DNA from: Candidatus Saccharimonadota bacterium
GTDB taxonomy: Bacteria > Patescibacteriota > Saccharimonadia > Saccharimonadales > UBA4665
Length of the DNA stretch: 32,000 nt
Assembly (NCBI GenBank): GCA_002952755.1
Contig: CP025011.1
Coordinates: forward strand, 30,001-62,000
Reading direction: 5' to 3'
Part shown: piece after piece, positions 4,276 to 29,947 of the stretch
How the letters are laid out: each line of letters opens with the position of its first letter
Position numbering within the stretch: position 1 is the stretch's first letter
Notes under the pieces: generated by a model
The model's input: the letters and a program-made list of their open reading frames with translations, nothing else
Told to the model about the DNA's origin: nothing
Databases searched by the model: none
Position numbers and translations under genes: made by a program

Positions 4276-4727
4276 CAGAGACAATTCGTCCAACAAAAAA
4301 ACAACGGGAGTTGCTGACATTCATCGAGCAATTCATTGGCGAGCACGGCTACAGTCCGAGTTATCGGGAAGTAATGACTGGTCTGAACTATACCTCGGTG
4401 GCAACCGTGGCGCTGCATATCAACAACCTTATCCGGCGAGGCCATATTCGTAAACGTGACCATTCGGCCCGCTCACTCGAAGTCGTCACGCCTACGGAAC
4501 AGCCGAAAGTGGTGAGTAATGTCATTGCTCCTGGCGAAGAAAAATGGCTCGTCGAGAAAGTGGAGCATCTTTTTAGCGAATTGGAGCGCTCTGGTAAAGT
4601 GGTGGTTGATCAACTCGATCATCTATATGTGCTAGTTGGTGCGCTGAAGGTACTCGGCTTGGATGGCGCCGCACAGAGCTTTATTCCGCGTTTGTCGGCT
4701 CTTAAACAGCGTTTGCCCGAAGAATAG
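4272..4727 (+). CDS. winged-helix regulator with a LexA-type N-terminal DNA-binding domain and no S24 peptidase domain
   Basis: The N-terminus TKKQRELLTFIEQFIGEHGYSPSYREVMTGLNYTSVATVALHINNLIRRGHIRK resembles the LexA DNA-binding domain. The remaining ~80 aa look helical and have no Ser/Lys dyad motif. The start overlaps the GtrA stop as ATGA. Confidence 0.6.
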   Translation: MTETIRPTKKQRELLTFIEQFIGEHGYSPSYREVMTGLNYTSVATVALHINNLIRRGHIRKRDHSARSLEVVTPTEQPKVVSNVIAPGEEKWLVEKVEHLFSELERSGKVVVDQLDHLYVLVGALKVLGLDGAAQSFIPRLSALKQRLPEE

Positions 4728-4769
4728 TGTTTGTAGGCAAAACTACACCACGCATATAGTGTCCGTGAT

Positions 4770-4778
4770 TGCTATAGT
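4770..4778 (+). promoter_or_regulatory. extended -10 promoter (TGcTATAGT) for the riboswitch leader
   Basis: TGCTATAGT lies at 4770-4778, about 25 nt upstream of the conserved riboswitch core. Confidence 0.4.
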
Positions 4779-4784
4779 TAAAGA

Positions 4785-4952
4785 TAGTTAACAACCAAAA
4801 ATGCTGGAAGCGAGTGAGAATCTCGCACTGTGCCGCAACGGTAATTCTGTATACAGATAAGTCCGATACAGCAATAAACCATTCGTTCCCGAGCAGGAAA
4901 TGGCTATGCTGTAACCGCATACCTGCTCTTTTCGAACAAGAGCAGGTATTTT
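4785..4952 (+). promoter_or_regulatory. cobalamin riboswitch-like leader (short class) with a terminator/antiterminator expression platform
   Basis: Positions 4806-4844 read GGAAGCGAGTGAGAATCTCGCACTGTGCCGCAACGGTAA. This parallels the conserved Cbl core, for example the E. coli btuB leader GGGAAUCCAGUGCGAAUCUGGAGCUGACGCGCAGCGGUAAGGA. A hairpin TCTGTATACAGA follows at 4846-4857. AAGTCCGATACAGCA at 4859-4873 compares with AAGCCCGAAGACCUGCC. GCTG at 4803-4806 pairs with CAGC at 4869-4872. GAGCAGG at 4891-4897 can pair with CCTGCTC at 4922-4928, which is the 5' arm of the terminator. Confidence 0.7.
4921..4952 (+). terminator. rho-independent terminator forming the riboswitch expression platform
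   Basis: A 10-bp perfect stem (ACCTGCTCTT at 4921-4930 with AAGAGCAGGT at 4938-4947) encloses the loop TTCGAAC and is followed by ATTTT. It ends 3 nt before the ATG at 4955. Confidence 0.7.
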
Positions 4953-4954
4953 AG

Positions 4955-6481
4955 ATGAAAGAAGTTCCTCCCGGACCTGTGTTACCTGAGATTGGAGCAG
5001 ATCAACCGCCTTTTGCTCTATTAGCTCGGGATCTGATAAGCGAACAGGCAGCACAGCTGGCTTATAAGACGCGCTTCATAGGCGCGGCCGCCACATCTGA
5101 GATAGTTGAATGTGACACTCCTGCTGATGTTGAAGGAGGCGTGACGCTTGCCGAGGCATTATCGAGCAGTCTTGAGGGTGACGAAGACGCTACAGGAATT
5201 GTACGTCTCGCGGTAAAGACGGCTGTCTTAGAAGCAGTGTTTAAGGATAAACACATTACTCGAGTAGAGCGTGAACGTAATGAAGTAGGACAGATAGTAC
5301 AATATGGACTTACTTCAGAGCAGATGCACTACAATTCGCTTGTCCTGCGACCGGGTAGGCACGAATTACTCCAAGAGCACACCAAAGCCGAGGCGTTGAA
5401 TGGCTATCGTGAAGAGGAGGCTATGCGTGAGGGACTTCTCAAAGAATATGCGATGGTAGTCTGCTCTGGTGTGGCCCAAGATCTGCCCGAGAAACTGCTT
5501 GACCACCGTGGCGAAGGCTACTTTTTGCATGAGATGACCTATTGCATACAAAGCACCACCGACGAGGGCGACATAATGACCGAGACAGCCTTTATGGCAG
5601 GCACCGATGCTCCTGAAGATGCGACTTTTGATGAGCGAATAGCACAGCGTTTTGATATTGAAGTATTTGGGATGGTCTACGAATGGCTGGGGCTTGAGGC
5701 GCCGAAGACGGTTCTCGAGTTCCTACGGAATCCAGTATTCATTCATAAGAGCTTGATGCCGAATGGTGTTGTAGACTTCGTGCGCTGGTGCAACCAAGCC
5801 AAAGATATCTTGCGGGGTCGAGAGGTTGAGCAACCTATCGAACAATATATCCAAATGCTTGCAAAATCTGCGGAGCGTGAGGCCAGTATGGATGTAACCG
5901 TGGATAAGGTTATGCAGAAGTTGTTCAGCTATGCCGGGACGTTTAAGAATCCGAAAGAGGCCAACGATTTGTTATGGGAGCTAGTTAAGGACTATACCGT
6001 TGAAGCATCTGTTACGAATTTGAATATTAACCTAAACGTATTCGGCCCGCAAGCTCAAGTACGACTCGAGAAGGCTCGAAATTATGCAGCCCAGGGCGAT
6101 TTCGTTAATATGGAACGCTGGCTTATAAGCGGACATCGCTTTGCAGTTGTGAGCGGCTGCGGAGGTGGATCGCCAACCGAAATGCAAGATATGCTCGATG
6201 CGCGCCGTGCTGGGAGTGGCGATACGGACGAAACTTGGCATGGTGGGGAAATACACAAAAACGAGAAATGTAACTCTTGCAAGATTGTCAAACCTGAGGT
6301 AGGGAAATGTCATATATGCTGGGACTGTATGCAGCACCCGGCAATAATGGAGGCTACCTATAAGCGCGAGCAAGCCGAAAAGGGGCGTTCTAAGGGCCTA
6401 GTGGCAATTATCGCAGAGCGCGTTAGTAATCTGGCTATAAAAGCGGAGCCTGGCATAAGTGGTAGTCGGCAAATGTTTTAG
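4955..6481 (+). CDS. hypothetical protein, 508 aa, acidic and soluble, with a C-terminal CxxC-x10-CxxCxxC cluster
   Basis: This is a long ORF with no competing frame and no TM segment. The motifs are VVSGCGGGSP and CNSCKIVKPEVGKCHICWDC (codons 6269-6328). I recognise no family. Confidence 0.6.
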   Translation: MKEVPPGPVLPEIGADQPPFALLARDLISEQAAQLAYKTRFIGAAATSEIVECDTPADVEGGVTLAEALSSSLEGDEDATGIVRLAVKTAVLEAVFKDKHITRVERERNEVGQIVQYGLTSEQMHYNSLVLRPGRHELLQEHTKAEALNGYREEEAMREGLLKEYAMVVCSGVAQDLPEKLLDHRGEGYFLHEMTYCIQSTTDEGDIMTETAFMAGTDAPEDATFDERIAQRFDIEVFGMVYEWLGLEAPKTVLEFLRNPVFIHKSLMPNGVVDFVRWCNQAKDILRGREVEQPIEQYIQMLAKSAEREASMDVTVDKVMQKLFSYAGTFKNPKEANDLLWELVKDYTVEASVTNLNINLNVFGPQAQVRLEKARNYAAQGDFVNMERWLISGHRFAVVSGCGGGSPTEMQDMLDARRAGSGDTDETWHGGEIHKNEKCNSCKIVKPEVGKCHICWDCMQHPAIMEATYKREQAEKGRSKGLVAIIAERVSNLAIKAEPGISGSRQMF

Positions 6482-12072: not shown

Positions 12073-12846
12073 TTATATTGAAGTATCAAACTTGCCAGAA
12101 CTTTGGATTGTCTTTAGAGCATGTGACTCCAATGTCATCTTGATGGGCCATTCGTTTTCCCTAATCCGTCGTTCATCTACCGTAATGCCGAGTATACTTC
12201 CCGCTAGGCGTACGATATCCAGATGATAAGGAAGTAACCCCATTACAACATGCTGCTCACCCGGATCTCTTCTGGAAAGTAATAAACCGGTGGTTTCTAA
12301 TATTCCCCAGTTGAAGGCGTTCGTCGCCAAGGCACCGGCCGCTGCTTGGATGATTTCCTCTCTGTGTATGGCCTCAGAATCAAATGGAGATATTTGTTGA
12401 TGGAATAATTCAGCACTTTGGAAGCGATCATTCACTACTTCAGAAATTTCTGCAATCACATCGCGGGTCCTGGGATTTAGGAAATTTTCAGCACTAAAAA
12501 GCAGTATGTCTTTTTCGGGACTCGCTTTATCACGTCGGGTGAGGTATGTTTGGTCGCTTCCACCTTTTAGGGTGACGCTATGGCCCACTAGTGTCGCACT
12601 TTCTACCAAAGCTTCATATTCGCCAGGGTCACCCAAGTCGCTGCCGGTTCGCTGCATATTGTAGAGTATCGTGAGTTGTATGCTATCTGCATGATCTATT
12701 AAATGTTCGATGCCCGCACACCCTAGCCAAGAAGGGGGGCCGTATGGATCGTACATTTCATCTGTTGGTTCACGCAGCTGTACTTCTGTGGTGCCCTCAA
12801 TAGGATAAAACCATTGATCTATAGGCAACAATTCTATCTCTGACAT
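12073..12846 (-). CDS. hypothetical protein, 257 aa, acidic, with no recognisable domain
   Basis: It is a clean ORF with an SD AAGGAG 6 nt upstream of the ATG. GC in sampled lines is noticeably lower than in its neighbours. Confidence 0.55.
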   Translation of the reverse strand: MSEIELLPIDQWFYPIEGTTEVQLREPTDEMYDPYGPPSWLGCAGIEHLIDHADSIQLTILYNMQRTGSDLGDPGEYEALVESATLVGHSVTLKGGSDQTYLTRRDKASPEKDILLFSAENFLNPRTRDVIAEISEVVNDRFQSAELFHQQISPFDSEAIHREEIIQAAAGALATNAFNWGILETTGLLLSRRDPGEQHVVMGLLPYHLDIVRLAGSILGITVDERRIRENEWPIKMTLESHALKTIQSSGKFDTSI

Positions 12847-18068: not shown

Positions 18069-19964
18069 ATGAGAAGTAACGAGTGGTTTACTAGTGGTGA
18101 CTCAAATGACAAGCGTCGCAGCAGTAAGAGCGAGACTTCTTCAACTCCCCTTGGCACCGAATCGGCAGAAGAAGCCTTGCCGCCTGAAATGCTTAGACGT
18201 GGTGAGCGCGCCCACGAACTAGACCCTTCCCGCCCTTCTGCCTTTCTTTTAAAGGAAATCCTGGAAGATAGAAGCGAACGGCCTGTTCGTACCACGCCTA
18301 CGTCGCCGTCAGACGAGGCAGAGATCCCTTTGCGCACTCGTATGCCCGACATGGTCATCGATGGACGGCAGGTTCGGCTACATGACGGGCGCTACCAGCA
18401 CGATAGAGCGACAGAAATTATAGAAAAGGCAGACTCGGCGGAAAAAGGTGACGAGGATGCCGAAGGCGACGACAATGAAGAAGACGGCGGCGAGGCGCCA
18501 ACTCAAACTAAAAAGGTCGTTACCCCCCCAACTCAGCCGCGCCGCGAGGCAGCACAGGTATCGGTTGCTCAGCAAATTATCGATCGGCTCGACGCTGACA
18601 CCCATGAAGCATTTGCCGAAACAGAAGAAAGGATAGATGCACTCGTCGACGCCAACGTGTCTGAGCCGACGGAGCCATCGGAAACTGTGCACGCAGCAGA
18701 ACCTCCGCGATCTGCAGAGCGTCCGCTTATATTGCCGCCTGTGCCTGAAGTGTCAGGGTTTGGTCCTGATTTCTCTACACCACTGCCTCCGCCGCCTGGC
18801 GGCGGACCGCCACGACCACCGATCCCTCCAATAGAAGGTGACGCATTCTATCCTCCAGAACCAGAGCCTACACCGTTTTCGTATGACGATGAAATATACT
18901 CACGCCACCCAGCATTTGCATCATCCGAACCGTCCGCTGACCGCTATGCGGCCATGCCCCCTGGCAATCCTAACTACATAAGCGTAGAGCAGCATCAGGC
19001 TGCTGTGCACGAAGCAGCGTACCGTGCTGAAAGGTATGGTGTGCGCCGTGGTGTAGTGGCTGGGTTTATCACCGGCTGGGTGGTGAAGCAGCATCTATCT
19101 AATCGTAAGTTGCATCGCATACAACAAGAGCATAGGCAAGCGTTACGGGAGCAACAGCACCACATTGCTGAGCTCGACGCTGCTCAAGCTCATTTAGATG
19201 AGCGGGTACGCACACAGGAGCAGCAGATCGATCGCTATCGGTACCAGCCGCAAACACGAATTGAGCAACCTGCACTACTGTCGCCGGCAACCCCGTTCGA
19301 GCAAGCTGCCGCGCAGGCCATGTTCCCCTCGCAGGGCAAACAGCCTATGGTGCCTGCCGTCGAGACTCTCTCACCGATAGTGTCACGGCCAAATAACCTG
19401 CCAGGTGAGGCAACGCAGTTGCAGGCGACTACGCAGACTGAGTTACCGTCCACGCAACCATCGGTATACAAGGAGACTGTCCCTCTTATTCAGGAGATAG
19501 ATAGGCAACCTCCTCCTGATAATCGGGCCGATCAGCAAGTTGTACAAGAACCGGGCCAGCATCTTGAACGCAGTGGTTGGTATAGTGCGGTCGTCGATGA
19601 ACATGGCCGCGAAATACCAGGCGCTATACGCTATGGCGAAGCACACCAGCGCGAACAACGTCAGGAACGCTCACCTCACGGTGTAACTGGCCAACAGCAA
19701 ACCAAACCGGGCGTTCCATCCCAACGTTACGCCGGGGGTGGTAGCTCGTTTGTTGGCGGAAGTACACAGCACCCCCAGCAGATGATTTCCAGCGGCCAGA
19801 CAGGACCAAGCCACCAATTGCCAACTGGGTACGATTATGCCGATGCACAACACCGGTTGCCGGCAAAATCTGTGCATTCGATCGCTAGTGCGATTTCAAG
19901 CCCGTGGCTATGGGCAGGCGTCGTTATATTGTTGCTCACTTTCTTTATTACCGCTTTGGCATAG
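18069..19964 (+). CDS. large low-complexity Pro/Gln/Glu-rich protein with a coiled-coil segment and a C-terminal TM anchor
   Basis: The 631-aa product contains PPPPGGGPPRPPIPP, the coiled-coil-like RKLHRIQQEHRQALREQQHHIAELDAAQAHLDERVRTQEQQIDRYR and the C-terminal helix WLWAGVVILLLTFFITALA. Confidence 0.55.
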   Translation: MRSNEWFTSGDSNDKRRSSKSETSSTPLGTESAEEALPPEMLRRGERAHELDPSRPSAFLLKEILEDRSERPVRTTPTSPSDEAEIPLRTRMPDMVIDGRQVRLHDGRYQHDRATEIIEKADSAEKGDEDAEGDDNEEDGGEAPTQTKKVVTPPTQPRREAAQVSVAQQIIDRLDADTHEAFAETEERIDALVDANVSEPTEPSETVHAAEPPRSAERPLILPPVPEVSGFGPDFSTPLPPPPGGGPPRPPIPPIEGDAFYPPEPEPTPFSYDDEIYSRHPAFASSEPSADRYAAMPPGNPNYISVEQHQAAVHEAAYRAERYGVRRGVVAGFITGWVVKQHLSNRKLHRIQQEHRQALREQQHHIAELDAAQAHLDERVRTQEQQIDRYRYQPQTRIEQPALLSPATPFEQAAAQAMFPSQGKQPMVPAVETLSPIVSRPNNLPGEATQLQATTQTELPSTQPSVYKETVPLIQEIDRQPPPDNRADQQVVQEPGQHLERSGWYSAVVDEHGREIPGAIRYGEAHQREQRQERSPHGVTGQQQTKPGVPSQRYAGGGSSFVGGSTQHPQQMISSGQTGPSHQLPTGYDYADAQHRLPAKSVHSIASAISSPWLWAGVVILLLTFFITALA

Positions 19965-20008: not shown

Positions 20009-20611
20009 TTAGCGGGTAACTTTTTTGAGGATAATTCCGAGCCCTAAGCGAAGCAGCGTAAGTGCGCCGAAAAGTATACTCAAGGCTATGCCGAAACCAG
20101 CCGTATCCATCGACCAATTGGCCGAAGCAAAGTCGAATTTATACATGGCGTCGGGGATCGAACGTGGCGAAGTACCGTGATCTTTGACGTATTGTTCGAT
20201 GCACGGTACACGTGGACCCCCGGAAAAACTATTGGGATATTTTGCTTCGCAGGTATGTTGCGCATCAGTGTAGATAGCAGAATTGACACTATCAACACGT
20301 GCTTTTTCAGCTTGCTGGAGCCTCTCGTAAGTGTATTTTAGTTGAATTGGTGGGTACACGCCATCGGCGCTGGCGAGTGAGGTGTTCATATGGGAGCCGA
20401 CGAACGCTCTAAGGTTTTGCAAGGCGTGCTCGACGTCACCGTTATGTTGATCGGTGGTGTATACGGCTTGACGAAGTACCGCCATATGCTGATAATTGGC
20501 ACGCATACCAAAGATACCTATGAGCGCAAAAACTATCGTTACTGCAAGCAGGTACCAGACTTTAATAGGACGGATACGCGTCCATAGATGATGAAGGTAG
20601 CTTTTATACAT
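20009..20611 (-). CDS. hypothetical two-TM membrane protein with a Cys-containing ectodomain
   Basis: The 200-aa product has the TM helix VWYLLAVTIVFALIGIFG near the N-terminus and GFGIALSILFGALTLLRLGL near the C-terminus. Confidence 0.55.
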   Translation of the reverse strand: MYKSYLHHLWTRIRPIKVWYLLAVTIVFALIGIFGMRANYQHMAVLRQAVYTTDQHNGDVEHALQNLRAFVGSHMNTSLASADGVYPPIQLKYTYERLQQAEKARVDSVNSAIYTDAQHTCEAKYPNSFSGGPRVPCIEQYVKDHGTSPRSIPDAMYKFDFASANWSMDTAGFGIALSILFGALTLLRLGLGIILKKVTR

Positions 20612-20663
20612 AAGAGTTACTGCTATTGTAGCGTAAAGTTCCTACCCAGGACTAGGTAGTTAC

Positions 20664-20770
20664 GATACCCCGCTCTCTCACTCCGAGCAGAGTCAGGCGT
20701 AGTGCAGCCAGACCGACTTTTAGTCGGCCTGCGCGAAAACGCTCTGCTCGGAGTGAGAGAGCGGGGTATC
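20664..20770. repeat. hairpin element E1: 29-bp perfect stem around a conserved 49-nt core
   Basis: GATACCCCGCTCTCTCACTCCGAGCAGAG (20664-20692) pairs with CTCTGCTCGGAGTGAGAGAGCGGGGTATC (20742-20770). The core is TCAGGCGTAGTGCAGCCAGACCGACTTTTAGTCGGCCTGCGCGAAAACG. Confidence 0.9.
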
Positions 20771-20790
20771 CGCCGCCTGTATTGTTAAGT

Positions 20791-20827
20791 ATAAAAATCA
20801 ACCCTCTGGCAATGCCAGAGGGTTGAT
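20791..20827 (-). terminator. rho-independent terminator of the 20849-21454 gene
   Basis: On the minus strand, ATCAACCCTCTGGC..GCCAGAGGGTTGAT forms a 13-14 bp stem followed by TTTTTAT. Confidence 0.7.
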
Positions 20828-20848
20828 GAAGGTTCTTAAGTTTTTATA

Positions 20849-21454
20849 TTAGGGCTTGGTAGTAGTGGTCGGCGTACTGGTGGCCGTTGAACACTGCTGA
20901 CCCTTGGGGTTTTGCTGGACCCATTGGCTGATAGCTTTACTTACCTGGCCATCGGTCTTGAGGTTTTCCCAGAAGGTAACTTGATCGCGGTTGATGATCA
21001 TTTGATCTAGCGGACCGTGCAATTCACAACCCAGCTTCACTAGTGAAACACTCTGGTTACTGTTGGCGGCGTTGGTGGTGGCATCTTTTTGGTTTGGCTG
21101 TACTTGCTGGTTCACGTTTAAGTAGTACACGCCTTGCAGGTCAACAAAGCGACTATTGATGGCCGTGACCCTACCAAAGTAAACCTGGCCGTTCGTAAGG
21201 AAAACCGCCTGCTCGGTTTTGGTATTAACGTAGGATACCTCTTTTGTGCCACCATAATGCAGCAAAAAGACCATGGATATAGCTAAACATGTGATAGCGA
21301 AGAGCAATACGACCCACATAACGCGCAACCAACTTGGACTACTATTCCAGCTTTTGCTCACGCTCGGCCTGCTACTTGCACTCGATGTAGTGCCCGCAGC
21401 GCTTGCAGCGCGTGCCGGAGTAGGCTGGGCACCACGGTTCGTATTAAATTCCAT
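20849..21454 (-). CDS. hypothetical N-terminally anchored membrane protein
   Basis: The start is placed at MEFNTNRG, with an SD AAGGGGGA 8 nt upstream. It has the TM helix WLRVMWVVLLFAITCLAISMVFLL, a beta-rich ectodomain and a Thr-rich tail. Confidence 0.6.
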   Translation of the reverse strand: MEFNTNRGAQPTPARAASAAGTTSSASSRPSVSKSWNSSPSWLRVMWVVLLFAITCLAISMVFLLHYGGTKEVSYVNTKTEQAVFLTNGQVYFGRVTAINSRFVDLQGVYYLNVNQQVQPNQKDATTNAANSNQSVSLVKLGCELHGPLDQMIINRDQVTFWENLKTDGQVSKAISQWVQQNPKGQQCSTATSTPTTTTKP

Positions 21455-21586
21455 TAGAAAAATCCCCCTTTTATAGACACTAGTGTAATACATGTCCTTT
21501 ATAGGCCGCAAGTAGCTTATGGCTATTCTTATCCCTCATATGGCACATTTCTGCAGCTTAAGAGGTCGTCATCTGGAGCATAACTG

Positions 21587-26361: not shown

Positions 26362-27104
26362 TGTTATCTTCACTCAAAGCAGAGTTTCGCAAGCTACTTA
26401 CTGTGCGCTCAACGTACATCATTTTCGGCATCACCGTACTGCTGGTCATTTTCTTTGCTTTTTATGCCGAAGGTATAAAGGCGACAACCGAGGCCTTGTA
26501 CAACCCTGGACTACTCGTCAGCGAAAGTAAGCAGGCGATTATGGCTGTTGGCTTACTGGGTGCCATGGTAGGCGTTTTGCTCGTCACACACGAGTATCGC
26601 TATAACACAGTGATGTACACGCTCACTGCGTCCAATAGCCGTACCAAAGTTATTCTAGCTAAATTACTGACCGTAAGCGCCTTTGCGGTCGTTTTTTCGC
26701 TGGTCGTGGGCTCGCTATCCCCAGCGCTTACCTATCTAGGTATTCATCTAAAGGGTCACGCACTGGTACATCAGGTATTCCCAGTGTGGGACGTTCTGTG
26801 GCGGGTTGTATTTGTTGGCTGGGGCTATGCCATGCTCGGCTTTATCTTTGCCTCAGCCATCCGTATACAGGTGGGAGCAATCTCGGCTATGTTCCTCGTT
26901 CCCGCTATGGTTGAGCCGCTCGTCGGACTGCTTCTTAAGCAAAATGCCGTCTATCTGCCATTTAACGATTTGCAGACAGTGCTTATGCACCAAGGCACGC
27001 TTAAGACCATTTCAGTTGCAAACGCTGCTTGGCTGTTCGTGATCTATGTAGTCGGGGGCATGCTCATCACCTGGCAACTCTTTGTCCGCCGCGACGCTAA
27101 CTAG
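26358..27104 (+). CDS. ABC-2 family permease
   Basis: The 248-aa product has six predicted TM helices. Its start overlaps the ATPase stop as ATGA. Confidence 0.7.
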   Translation: MMLSSLKAEFRKLLTVRSTYIIFGITVLLVIFFAFYAEGIKATTEALYNPGLLVSESKQAIMAVGLLGAMVGVLLVTHEYRYNTVMYTLTASNSRTKVILAKLLTVSAFAVVFSLVVGSLSPALTYLGIHLKGHALVHQVFPVWDVLWRVVFVGWGYAMLGFIFASAIRIQVGAISAMFLVPAMVEPLVGLLLKQNAVYLPFNDLQTVLMHQGTLKTISVANAAWLFVIYVVGGMLITWQLFVRRDAN

Positions 27105-27889
27105 ATTCGTCCAAGGGTGTCTACGGCAGTTTGTACCAGCGGTTGCAATTCTTCGGTGGCGATATTGGTGATTAAGTGACGTGCCGGCGTGTCCATATCT
27201 TCTGTAGGCCAGTCAGCAATTTGACGCTGGGACGGTGAAACGGCAAAGCTGCTTAATCGCGCAAAGCTTATCCCCGTAATGTCGGAAAGGGGTCGAACTC
27301 TCCATCCTGGCGGTAAGGCGAAGTAGTCTTGATAATGCTCCTTGGTATCTACATAATAGAGTGATCCAGGGTTGAAAGTTACATCTCCAATACGAACTTC
27401 TGTAACTCCCAGCCCCGACGAATAGCCGGTTCCCTTGACGACGATTGAAGCAGCGCCATTCTCGTCGACGAATATCTCCCCGCCATAGCCCGACAAACTA
27501 TGTACTACGCCTTCCTGGATCGAATGAAGTGTAGAGGCAAATCCATATTCTGCGGCGCTACAAGTATTTGCGGTTTGACGTGCCTGCCTTGGGAATCTAA
27601 TCGGAGTGTCTAGGTTTGGGGGTTCCACGCTCTGATTAATGATGTGTTGCATAATGCGAGAGACGTCGTCTTCCGAGTACACTGGCCATTCAATAACTCT
27701 ATTCGCTAAAGTCGCTGCATCTCCTTCCCGCAGTATCTCAGCAGCAGCCGAAGCAAGCATATGTGCGGGCCAACTTGGGCAATCTCTGGCGACTCTTCTT
27801 AGGCGTGTTTCTAGATCGACGCCCTGTTGTGCGCAGGCGTCAACGAACTGTTTTGTTGTAACTGGAACGTACTGTTCAGAGATCCCCAT
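27101..27889 (-). CDS. hypothetical protein, 262 aa
   Basis: It is a clean ORF with no recognisable domain. Its stop overlaps the convergent permease stop by 4 nt. A TAGAAT box (complement of 27899-27904) lies 9 nt upstream of the ATG. Confidence 0.5.
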   Translation of the reverse strand: MGISEQYVPVTTKQFVDACAQQGVDLETRLRRVARDCPSWPAHMLASAAAEILREGDAATLANRVIEWPVYSEDDVSRIMQHIINQSVEPPNLDTPIRFPRQARQTANTCSAAEYGFASTLHSIQEGVVHSLSGYGGEIFVDENGAASIVVKGTGYSSGLGVTEVRIGDVTFNPGSLYYVDTKEHYQDYFALPPGWRVRPLSDITGISFARLSSFAVSPSQRQIADWPTEDMDTPARHLITNIATEELQPLVQTAVDTLGRI

Positions 27890-29165: not shown

Positions 29166-29241
29166 TGGTGGGGGCGGTTGGAGTTGAACCAACCACCAAG
29201 CGGTTATGAGCCGCCTGCTCTAACCGATGAGCTACGCCCCC
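29166..29241 (-). tRNA. tRNA with CAU anticodon, elongator type (tRNA-Met, or tRNA-Ile2 if lysidinylated), CCA encoded
   Basis: The reverse complement reads GGGGGCG-TA-GCTC-ATCGGTTA-GAGC-A-GGCGG-CTCATAA-CCGCT-TGGTG-GTTGG-TTCAACT-CCAAC-CGCCCCC-ACCA. This is a full cloverleaf with a paired 1:72. Confidence 0.9.
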
Positions 29242-29872: not shown

Positions 29873-29947
29873 CGCGGGGTGGAGCAGCGGCAGCTCGCGT
29901 GGCTCATAACCACGAGGTCAGAGGTTCGAGTCCTCTCCCCGCAACCA
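29873..29947 (+). tRNA. initiator tRNA-fMet (CAU), CCA encoded
   Basis: The sequence reads CGCGGGG-TG-GAGC-AGCGGCA-GCTC-G-CGTGG-CTCATAA-CCACG-AGGTC-AGAGG-TTCGAGT-CCTCT-CCCCGCA-A-CCA. The C1/A72 mismatch and A11:U24 pair are bacterial initiator hallmarks. The anticodon stem has U29:A41 instead of the first of the three G:C pairs. Confidence 0.9.

Follow-up and report, generated by a model that had tools for sequence, protein, structure and literature searches.

The cobalamin riboswitches of all classes have a kissing loop between L5 and L13 in common (PMC7367189), and these kissing loops are reported always to hold at least one unpaired nucleotide (PMC5028336). The Cbl-II riboswitches are defined by the lack of the P2 loop-stem-loop and by a P6 that bears a loop or a short hairpin in the place of P7-P11. 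The Cbl-IIa members, which display a P6 loop and a bulged J1/3, are selective for hydroxocobalamin (HOCbl)/methylcobalamin (MeCbl), and the Cbl-IIb members, which display a short P6 hairpin and a short paired or mismatched J1/3, are selective for adenosylcobalamin (AdoCbl) (PMC7367189). Here we describe a leader of this kind, located in a 32,000-nucleotide stretch (hereafter the window) of contig CP025011.1 of a Candidatus Saccharimonadota bacterium, directly upstream of a gene encoding a protein of 508 amino acids (aa). Overall, the region between positions 4802 and 4952 of the window probably functions as a cobalamin riboswitch of the Cbl-II type, which would repress the downstream 508-aa gene when cobalamin is bound.

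Identification of the aptamer core

A first-pass annotation, made from the letters of the window, had proposed a short-type cobalamin aptamer in front of this gene, and the RF00174 match, the orthologous leaders reaching the RF01689 score and the covariation described below all support this proposal. The entire window was scanned against the 4227 families of Rfam 15. Only three matches attained the gathering score, namely two transfer RNAs (tRNAs) and the Cobalamin family RF00174, the model that the first-pass annotation had pointed to, which aligns at positions 4753-4889 with 32.0 bits (gathering score 31.5; E = 1.2e-4). In a local sensitive scan, the AdoCbl family RF01482 matched positions 4789-4908 with 43 bits (E = 1.2e-6), under its gathering score of 50. 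The folding stability of the leader exceeds that of 200/200 dinucleotide shuffles (z = -3.3). The elements of the aptamer (all on the plus strand) are the following.

4802-4873, plus strand: cobalamin aptamer core, delimited by RF00174, RF01482, the custom covariance model R1 (see below) and pair covariation
4802-4806/4869-4873, plus strand: helix P3 of the core, with J3/4 = GAA
4810-4814/4822-4826, plus strand: helix P4, with the T-loop-like L4 of 7 nucleotides (nt), UGAGAAU (GUGAGAAUC)
4829-4831/4835-4837, plus strand: helix P5, with L5 = GCC at 4832-4834
4839-4841/4863-4865, plus strand: helix P6, with J6/3 = AUA at 4866-4868
4846-4857, plus strand: hairpin extending P6 within L6, UCUG-UAUA-CAGA, with the palindrome UCUGUAUACAGA, read from the sequence

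In terms of primary sequence, the core displays GGAAG at 4806-4810, the GCGAG/UGAGAAU/CUCGC hairpin at 4810-4826, CCGCAACGGUAA at 4833-4844 and AAGUCCGAUACAGCA at 4859-4873; the motifs listed in the first-pass annotation are all present, displaced by 1-2 nt at most. In the RF00174 alignment, the 60-nt P7-P11 insert of the model shrinks to 5 nt in the window, whose P6 bears just the 12-nt hairpin 4846-4857, with no P7-P11; the minimal hairpin that had been noticed in the place of the large peripheral extension is therefore real. A covarying P2 was looked for in the leaders of the window type and was not found. The P1/P2 pairing proposed by RF00174 (4753-4800) was rejected: its pairs are flagged as non-canonical and its 5' strand overlaps the putative -10 element of the promoter, in a region kept as sequence and devoid of covariation.

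By the published definitions (PMC7367189), the element, having neither the P2 arm nor P7-P11, is of the Cbl-II architectural type; its core matches AdoCbl-II. The short P6 hairpin of the window has the look of Cbl-IIb and the bare loop of three orthologous leaders (L004, L005, and L008; loci are designated by L numbers) that of Cbl-IIa, and P1 and J1/3 are not identifiable. Therefore, with IIb-like and IIa-like members in the same group, the ligand preference is not readable from the sequence. Both the binding of cobalamin and the form sensed are presumed.

Conservation and covariation of the leader

Eleven loci were fetched solely via homology of the downstream protein, L003-L005 from genomes and L006-L013 from metagenome assemblies. 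The riboswitch is found upstream of the homologue of the 508-aa gene in 11/11 of these loci: the exact core CUGUGCCGCAAC is present in 10, and the leader of L012 was recognized with a covariance model (53.6 bits). The nucleotides of the aptamer core are near-invariant, although the orthologous proteins are only 31-58% identical. Three leaders (L004, L005, and L008) lack the P6 insertion and reach the gathering score of RF01689 AdoCbl-II (38.3-41.4 bits versus 36.5). According to the recorded gene calls of L006-L013, the leader occupies an intergenic position in a syntenic block consisting of the sugar transferase gene, the GtrA gene (in most loci), the LexA-like gene, the leader and the gene of about 500 aa; 3' of the latter lies an opposite-strand DsbA-like gene in all L006-L013, followed in most of them by the CBS and synthetase genes.

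The covariance model R1 (122 positions, 20 pairs) was built by imposing the Cbl-II architecture on ten orthologous leaders, and was searched against the orthologous loci plus 120 metagenomic stretches retrieved by a 15-nt core pattern; the window scores 114.4 bits. The covariation counts refer to the 48 best R1 matches, in an alignment fitted to the model, which inflates such figures. In these 48 leaders, standard pairs fill 95.0% of the pair cells versus 68.5% in shuffles, and the covariation score is 0.638 versus 0.156. Both-sided changes occur in 15/20 pairs, distributed over P3 (5/5), P4 (4/5), P5 (1/3), P6 (1/3) and the P13 stem (4/4), the remaining pairs being invariant. When the partners are slid by 1-3 columns, pairing falls to 33-47%. 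These slid controls, together with the many pair types, make the fold convincing despite the model-fitted alignment. The conservation in related loci of the pairings first proposed for the window is borne out by the 11/11 loci carrying the leader and by these compensatory pairs. RNAalifold, applied to 10 leaders, recovered P3, P4, and P13; its non-canonical proposal for P5/P6 was set aside for the Cbl-II architecture, which was tested by pair counting.

The P6 hairpin is conserved as a structure and not as a sequence. Indeed, the orthologous leaders form it with unrelated sequences (UCCU/AGGA, GCUGG/CCAGC, CUCUU/AAGAG, AGUAAA/UUUACU, and CCCU/AGGG), and L004, L005, and L008 have none. In L003 (positions 2212-2312), the place of the short P6 hairpin is taken by two inverted 48-nt arms, which are 83% complementary and separated by 5 nt; the aptamer core and the platform around this inverted repeat are intact. 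The repeat may have been inserted into the periphery of the aptamer, or else be a P6 extension of unusual length.

Expression platform and proposed mechanism

Downstream of the core, the following elements were recognized.

4879-4903, plus strand: P13-type hairpin (CCAU/AUGG plus UUCC/GGAA) with the loop L13, CGAGCA, at 4890-4895, the proposed kissing partner of L5
4891-4897, plus strand: antiterminator strand GAGCAGG, composed of L13 and the P13 3' arm, able to pair with CCUGCUC (4922-4928) when P13 is open
4919-4952, plus strand: putative terminator/Shine-Dalgarno (SD)-sequestering hairpin of 12 base pairs (bp), 4919-4930 with 4938-4949, loop UUCGAAC, then UUUU at 4949-4952, obtained by folding
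4944-4947, plus strand: SD-like AGGU, the sole one, inside the 3' arm of the hairpin, read from the sequence

The mutually exclusive terminator/antiterminator pairing that the first-pass annotation had put forward is present in the window and recurs in the orthologous leaders. Some of its details need correction: the hairpin has a stem of 12 bp and not 10 bp, and the start codon ATG (4955) lies 2 nt (AG), not 3 nt, after UUUU. The observation that the 3' arm covers the only SD-like AGG is exact. Likewise, GAGCAGG was rightly seen as the antiterminator; what had been missed is that it coincides with the loop and the 3' arm of the conserved P13/L13 hairpin. The L13 sequence CGAGCA was found by text search in 39/48 aligned leaders, and a hairpin with this loop lies downstream of P3 in each orthologous leader except L012.

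The P13 hairpin alone is weak (-4.9 kcal/mol). The GAGCAGG/CCUGCUC duplex amounts to -13.8 to -15.1 kcal/mol (z = -2.5 versus shuffles), and the 12-bp hairpin to -16.7 kcal/mol. GAGCAGG is repeated exactly at 4940-4946, within the 3' arm of the hairpin, and therefore the two copies compete for CCUGCUC. Folded in isolation, the platform has the antiterminator as its minimum-energy structure in L007, L004, L043, L105, L125, and L118, and P13 plus terminator in others. Compared with shuffles, the L13 region is complementary to the sequence 3' of it with z values of -2.5 in the window, -5.2 in L007, -5.5 in L010, -3.1 in L009, -2.65 in L118 and -2.5 in L125. In nearly all orthologous leaders, the sole SD-like element (AGGU or GGGU) resides in the 3' arm, and the 4-7 U after this arm lead immediately into the start codon. 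The hairpin 4919-4952 is thus a putative terminator and a putative SD sequestor at the same time, whose U-tract would double as the spacer between SD and AUG.

Concerning the connection to the aptamer, L5 (UGCCG, 4831-4835) is complementary to L13 (CG(A)GCA, 4890-4895) with one bulged A. In a leader recovered independently of the search pattern (L119, 3120-3229), L5 AGCCG occurs together with L13 CGAGCU; this matched double change is a single case and is suggestive of the L5/L13 kissing loop. We infer that the switch is a kissing-loop relay with a conserved P13/L13 and not a plain antiterminator. The orthologous leaders retain this relay, and for this reason the most probable reading of the element is an OFF switch, repressed by B12, that governs termination as well as SD access.

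In the mechanism that we propose, a corrinoid lodged in the P3-P6 four-way junction would stabilize the kissing contact between L5 and L13. This contact would lock the weak P13 and make GAGCAGG unavailable, so that the 12-bp hairpin 4919-4949 could form and, with UUUU, end transcription 2 nt before the ATG; in the transcripts that are read through, the same hairpin would bury the SD-like AGGU. Without ligand, CCUGCUC emerging from the polymerase would invade P13 and pair with GAGCAGG, leaving the 3' arm and the SD single-stranded and the gene expressed. The kissing loop, the folding kinetics and the respective share of termination and translation are presumptive components of this scheme. The relay platform is neat but conventional.

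A B12 regulon on other contigs

Riboswitches of the same type, with the same L5 and L13, are found on other contigs upstream of genes for the cobalamin adenosyltransferase PduO (Cob_adeno_trans, Pfam E = 1e-57), DUF4430, DUF6580 and the B12-independent reductase NrdD, and beside NrdJ; the statement of the first-pass annotation that cobalamin sensing is unexpected in a genome of this type therefore does not hold. In transcobalamin-type B12 binders, DUF4430 forms the C-terminal domain (PMC4350170). DUF6580 gave a weak match to the S-component of energy-coupling factor (ECF) transporters in one of the members tested. The NrdJ proteins encoded beside these operons in L067 and L119 match TIGR02504 (NrdJ_Z, AdoCbl-dependent) with 588-590 bits versus a cutoff of 400.

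The gene order is nrdJ - riboswitch - pduO - riboswitch - Cys/Zn-ribbon protein in L067 (5455-10495, minus strand), nrdJ - riboswitch - pduO - DUF4430 - DUF6580 - riboswitch - Cys/Zn-ribbon protein in L119 (529-5088, plus strand) and riboswitch - DUF6580 - pduO - riboswitch - Cys/Zn-ribbon protein in L103 (265-2125, plus strand). These two-riboswitch loci look like a compact B12-utilisation island. In L008, the riboswitch heads a three-gene operon consisting of DUF4430, DUF6580 and the homologue of the 508-aa gene. The relatives of the L067 protein are annotated as 'Patescibacteria group bacterium'. Their gene content suggests that these organisms reduce ribonucleotides with the help of AdoCbl and control the salvage of this cofactor. 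Full-text searches of the literature returned no paper linking cobalamin riboswitches or B12-dependent enzymes to Saccharibacteria or Patescibacteria/candidate phyla radiation (CPR). A variant with the same core and without the CGAGCA loop was also observed in L055 (16-1175, minus strand), before the gene of a 304-aa Cys_rich_CWC protein.

Evaluation of the assignment and of alternative explanations

A number of observations weigh against the reading of the element as a Cbl-II riboswitch with a dual OFF platform. The Rfam support is marginal, with RF00174 passing by a margin of 0.5 bit and RF01482 remaining sub-threshold; no P1 helix is detectable in the subgroup of leaders to which the window belongs; and neither NrdJ nor another B12 gene was found within the 32-kb window. 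The evidence of covariation for the kissing loop rests on one compensatory example because the metagenome search fixed L5. As for the energetics, the enforced OFF fold (P13 plus terminator, -23.1 kcal/mol) is about 5 kcal/mol more stable at equilibrium than the ON fold (antiterminator, -18.4 kcal/mol) even without ligand, and the ON state therefore needs kinetic, co-transcriptional control. Furthermore, among the 48 leaders, the antiterminator complementarity is absent in many non-orthologous ones, and the idea that it is a feature of all of them was abandoned; it is true of the orthologous subgroup. In several non-orthologous leaders the P13 3' arm reads GGAG and the open reading frame (ORF) starts within a few nt. 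This suggests that the GGAG-bearing leaders may have a direct, env8-like design and that the relay may be limited to the subgroup of the window.

Part of these points also bears on the possibility, which we regard as doubtful though not negligible, that the cobalamin riboswitch acts essentially on translation, the hairpin 4919-4949 being an SD sequestor and the U run a mere SD-to-AUG spacer. The U-tract of the window consists of only 4 U, or 3 if A4919 pairs with U4949, and a consensus terminator scan did not report the hairpin, presumably owing to its T-run criterion; hence termination may be inefficient. The 3' arm always contains the AGGU (GGGU in orthologs), at a distance of 6-8 nt from the start codon; in L105 the sequestor-like hairpin lacks a U-tract; and the GGAG-bearing leaders recall the translational env8, in which L13 contains the ribosome-binding site (RBS) (PMC5028336). 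On the other hand, most orthologs (L007, L009, L010, L011, and L013) display 5-7 U right after a GC-rich stem of 8-12 bp, the classic form of a terminator, and the two modes of regulation are not mutually exclusive.

It is very unlikely that the cobalamin-class fold senses another corrinoid, a cobamide or a different ligand, or that it is a non-switching relic. The modest Rfam scores and the missing P1 would fit such an explanation, as would the P6 periphery, which varies among the orthologs from a bare loop to a short or a long hairpin and belongs to the peripheral elements proposed to correlate with ligand selectivity (PMC7367189). Nevertheless, the core has stayed near-invariant in front of proteins that have diverged to 31-58% identity, the covariation observed would not persist in a relic, and a regulon comprising PduO, DUF4430, DUF6580 and NrdD beside NrdJ fits cobalamin and nothing else.

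Finally, a chance resemblance within a 72-aa minus-strand gene (4702-4920), an ORF that covers the element and figures as a gene in the public assembly of the identical contig (L001, 5551-5769, minus strand), has a negligible probability, given that this ORF has no Pfam hit on record, that conservation tracks RNA pairing through compensatory changes and not codons, that RF00174 matches above its gathering score and that the element has the same intergenic position in 11/11 orthologous loci; the calling of the 72-aa ORF as a gene is almost certainly an error induced by the structured leader.

The regulated 508-aa protein

4955-6481, plus strand: 508-aa protein of a family without annotation, encoded by the ORF after the leader

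The 508-aa protein has no match in Pfam or NCBIfam, nor in a sequence-profile search of the PDB, in agreement with the initial view that the downstream gene is not a known transporter, biosynthesis gene or isozyme. Its AlphaFold2 (AF2) model is of good quality (pLDDT 79.5, pTM 0.75, core > 90), and Foldseek comparison of this model with the PDB gave no hit at E <= 1e-3, with a best TM of about 0.1. In the family alignment, G401-C402-G403-G404-G405 (GCGGG) is invariant, along with many polar residues; it is followed by a low-confidence linker and by a C-terminal, zinc-ribbon-like CxxC...CxxC. The family comprises 449 representative clusters at E <= 1e-3, nearly all of 430-580 aa, and the closest named relative is a hypothetical protein from 'Candidatus Saccharimonadales bacterium'.

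A divergent riboswitch-regulated group (L022, L043, L125, L118, and L038) is homologous to the 508-aa family (hhalign 95%, E = 2e-8). A second family (L067, L092, L053, L036, L039, and others), with 97% hhalign probability internally, is found under the same riboswitch type and shares the C-terminal layout of the 508-aa family, a small-residue-Cys motif, then CxxC...CxxC. The hypothesis of a single superfamily embracing all the Cys plus zinc-ribbon targets was only partly supported: the links are strong within two pairs of groups (A1-A6 95%, A4-A5 97%; hhalign probability) and weak between them (A1-A4 58%, A1-A5 33%, A6-A4 0.1%). The combination of a Cys-Gly loop with a zinc ribbon also raised the idea of a new ribonucleotide reductase (RNR) or glycyl-radical enzyme, which was discarded: the fold search gave no RNR or glycyl-radical structure, and the recorded gene calls in the orthologous loci show no radical-SAM family nearby.

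The logic of the riboswitch allows two roles for this protein, either a feedback-repressed function in salvage, processing or delivery, like PduO and DUF4430/DUF6580, or a B12-sparing function, like NrdD. Most likely, to judge by its regulation, the 508-aa protein would take part in the B12 economy, in uptake, processing or delivery for the AdoCbl-dependent NrdJ or in B12 sparing, and the gene neighbourhoods favour salvage, processing or delivery over B12 sparing. That it is a B12-independent substitute for a B12-dependent function is less likely. It could be a thiolate-based B12 processing/delivery chaperone for NrdJ, with a role akin to CblC- or BtuM-type chemistry. We tentatively propose, at odds that fall short of even, that the 508-aa family is an unrecognised cobalamin-handling component in Saccharimonadales and other CPR bacteria.

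Other genes were observed directly 3' of the homologues of the 508-aa gene. A 58-62-aa ORF without Pfam match is found there in L007 (5512-5700), L008 (5596-5784) and L010 (5430-5606), and a CTP_transf_like gene in L006 (5577-6173), L008 (5774-6391), L011 (5473-6078) and L012 (5537-6184); the latter gene is not at that place in the window. In L109 (1783-2358), a CTP_transf_like gene located after DUF6580 passes the cutoff of NCBIfam TIGR00482 (nicotinate/nicotinamide-nucleotide adenylyltransferase).

As such, the riboswitch is a further example of a textbook class and is not surprising. The main value of these data, beyond the RNA itself, is the cobalamin link that they provide for an unannotated, fold-novel and widespread CPR protein family: riboswitches label function reliably, and this one ties the 'B12 economy' to a large family having neither annotation nor recognisable fold. 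The presence of the riboswitch would also mean that these Saccharimonadales bacteria, reduced and host-dependent, sense B12 actively. Bacteria that are unable to make B12 yet apparently depend on NrdJ must import, process and deliver the cofactor, and the 508-aa gene is a concrete candidate for this task. The look-alike second family, for its part, sits on other contigs among NrdJ, PduO and the DUF4430/DUF6580 pair, of which the former resembles B12 binders and the latter weakly matches ECF S-components.

Upstream region and genomic context

4770-4778, plus strand: putative extended -10 element TGCTATAGT (TGn plus TATAGT), proposed from the sequence
4788-4794, plus strand: conserved 5' leader box UUAACAA, UUAAYAA in the orthologous leaders

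L004, L005, L006, L011, and L012 have TGCTAcACT where the window has the -10-like element, and a consensus promoter scan found no promoter. For the UUAACAA box a pairing partner was looked for and none was found. Altogether, three blocks are conserved at the level of the sequence between the LexA-like gene and the aptamer (4722-4800 in the window; also in L003-L006, L011, and L012), namely TATATCTAGCG (CATATAGTG in the window), the -10-like TGCTAcACT and UUAACAA. For the TATATCTAGCG block, an unusual -35 element is conceivable, as is an operator, to which the adjacent LexA-like protein might bind.

The DNA of the window is cellular and has a GC content of about 50%. Its genes encode glycosyltransferases, a Bac_transf sugar transferase, GtrA, a LexA-like DNA-binding protein, a DsbA-like protein and a CBS protein, as well as a class II aminoacyl-tRNA synthetase (D/K/N type), base-excision glycosylases, ABC-2 transporters, Dus and SpoU. 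The two tRNA genes are divergent (29169-29241, minus strand, and 29873-29944, plus strand) and flank a 151-aa ORF; both have CAU at the anticodon position in the Rfam alignment (Met, fMet or Ile2 type). Sizeable ORFs without Pfam match are present at 18069-19964 (plus), 12073-12846 (minus), 20009-21511 (minus) and 27101-27889 (minus), with recorded sizes of 631, 257, 200, 220, and 262 aa. ORFs of this kind are typical of CPR genomes.

Comparison with known systems

The closest relatives of the element are the Cbl-II riboswitches (RF01689 AdoCbl-II, formerly AdoCbl-variant; env8 HyCbl, PDB 4FRN; divided into IIa and IIb in PMC7367189), with which it has in common the P3-P6 four-way junction lacking the P2 arm. 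The likeness extends to the 7-nt L4 UGAGAAU, to the J6/3 or B12-box-like AAGUCCGAUAC, to an L5 facing a downstream P13/L13 and to the lack of P7-P11; in addition, RF01689 attains its gathering score on those orthologous leaders that lack the P6 hairpin. Unlike these riboswitches, the subgroup of the window has no detectable P1 or J1/3, and its P6 periphery can be a loop, a short hairpin or a hairpin with 48-nt arms. The platforms differ as well: in env8 the RBS is L13 itself, whereas in the window L13 and the P13 3' arm would be relayed to a separate terminator/sequestor hairpin.

With the Cbl-I riboswitches for AdoCbl (RF00174; E. coli btuB; T. tengcongensis, PDB 4GMA) the element shares the conserved core, in keeping with the passing RF00174 match, and, as proposed here, the OFF logic, the L5-L13 kissing loop and a platform that terminates transcription or sequesters the RBS. 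It differs from them in having neither the large P7-P11 extension nor the P2 loop-stem-loop. The 'atypical' yvrC riboswitch of B. subtilis (PMC7367189) likewise carries a small P6 hairpin instead of P7-P11, and it has a terminator platform after P13, comparable to the putative one of the window; however, yvrC has a P2 arm, absent in the window, and regulates a known B12 transport operon. Lastly, with respect to the classical members of B12 regulons (btuB/btuFCD, cbrT, pduO, metE, nrdD/nrdAB), the PduO, DUF4430, DUF6580 and NrdD targets are shared by the other contigs, whereas the 508-aa target of the window, with its GCGGG motif and zinc ribbon, matches none of them and has no counterpart among solved folds.

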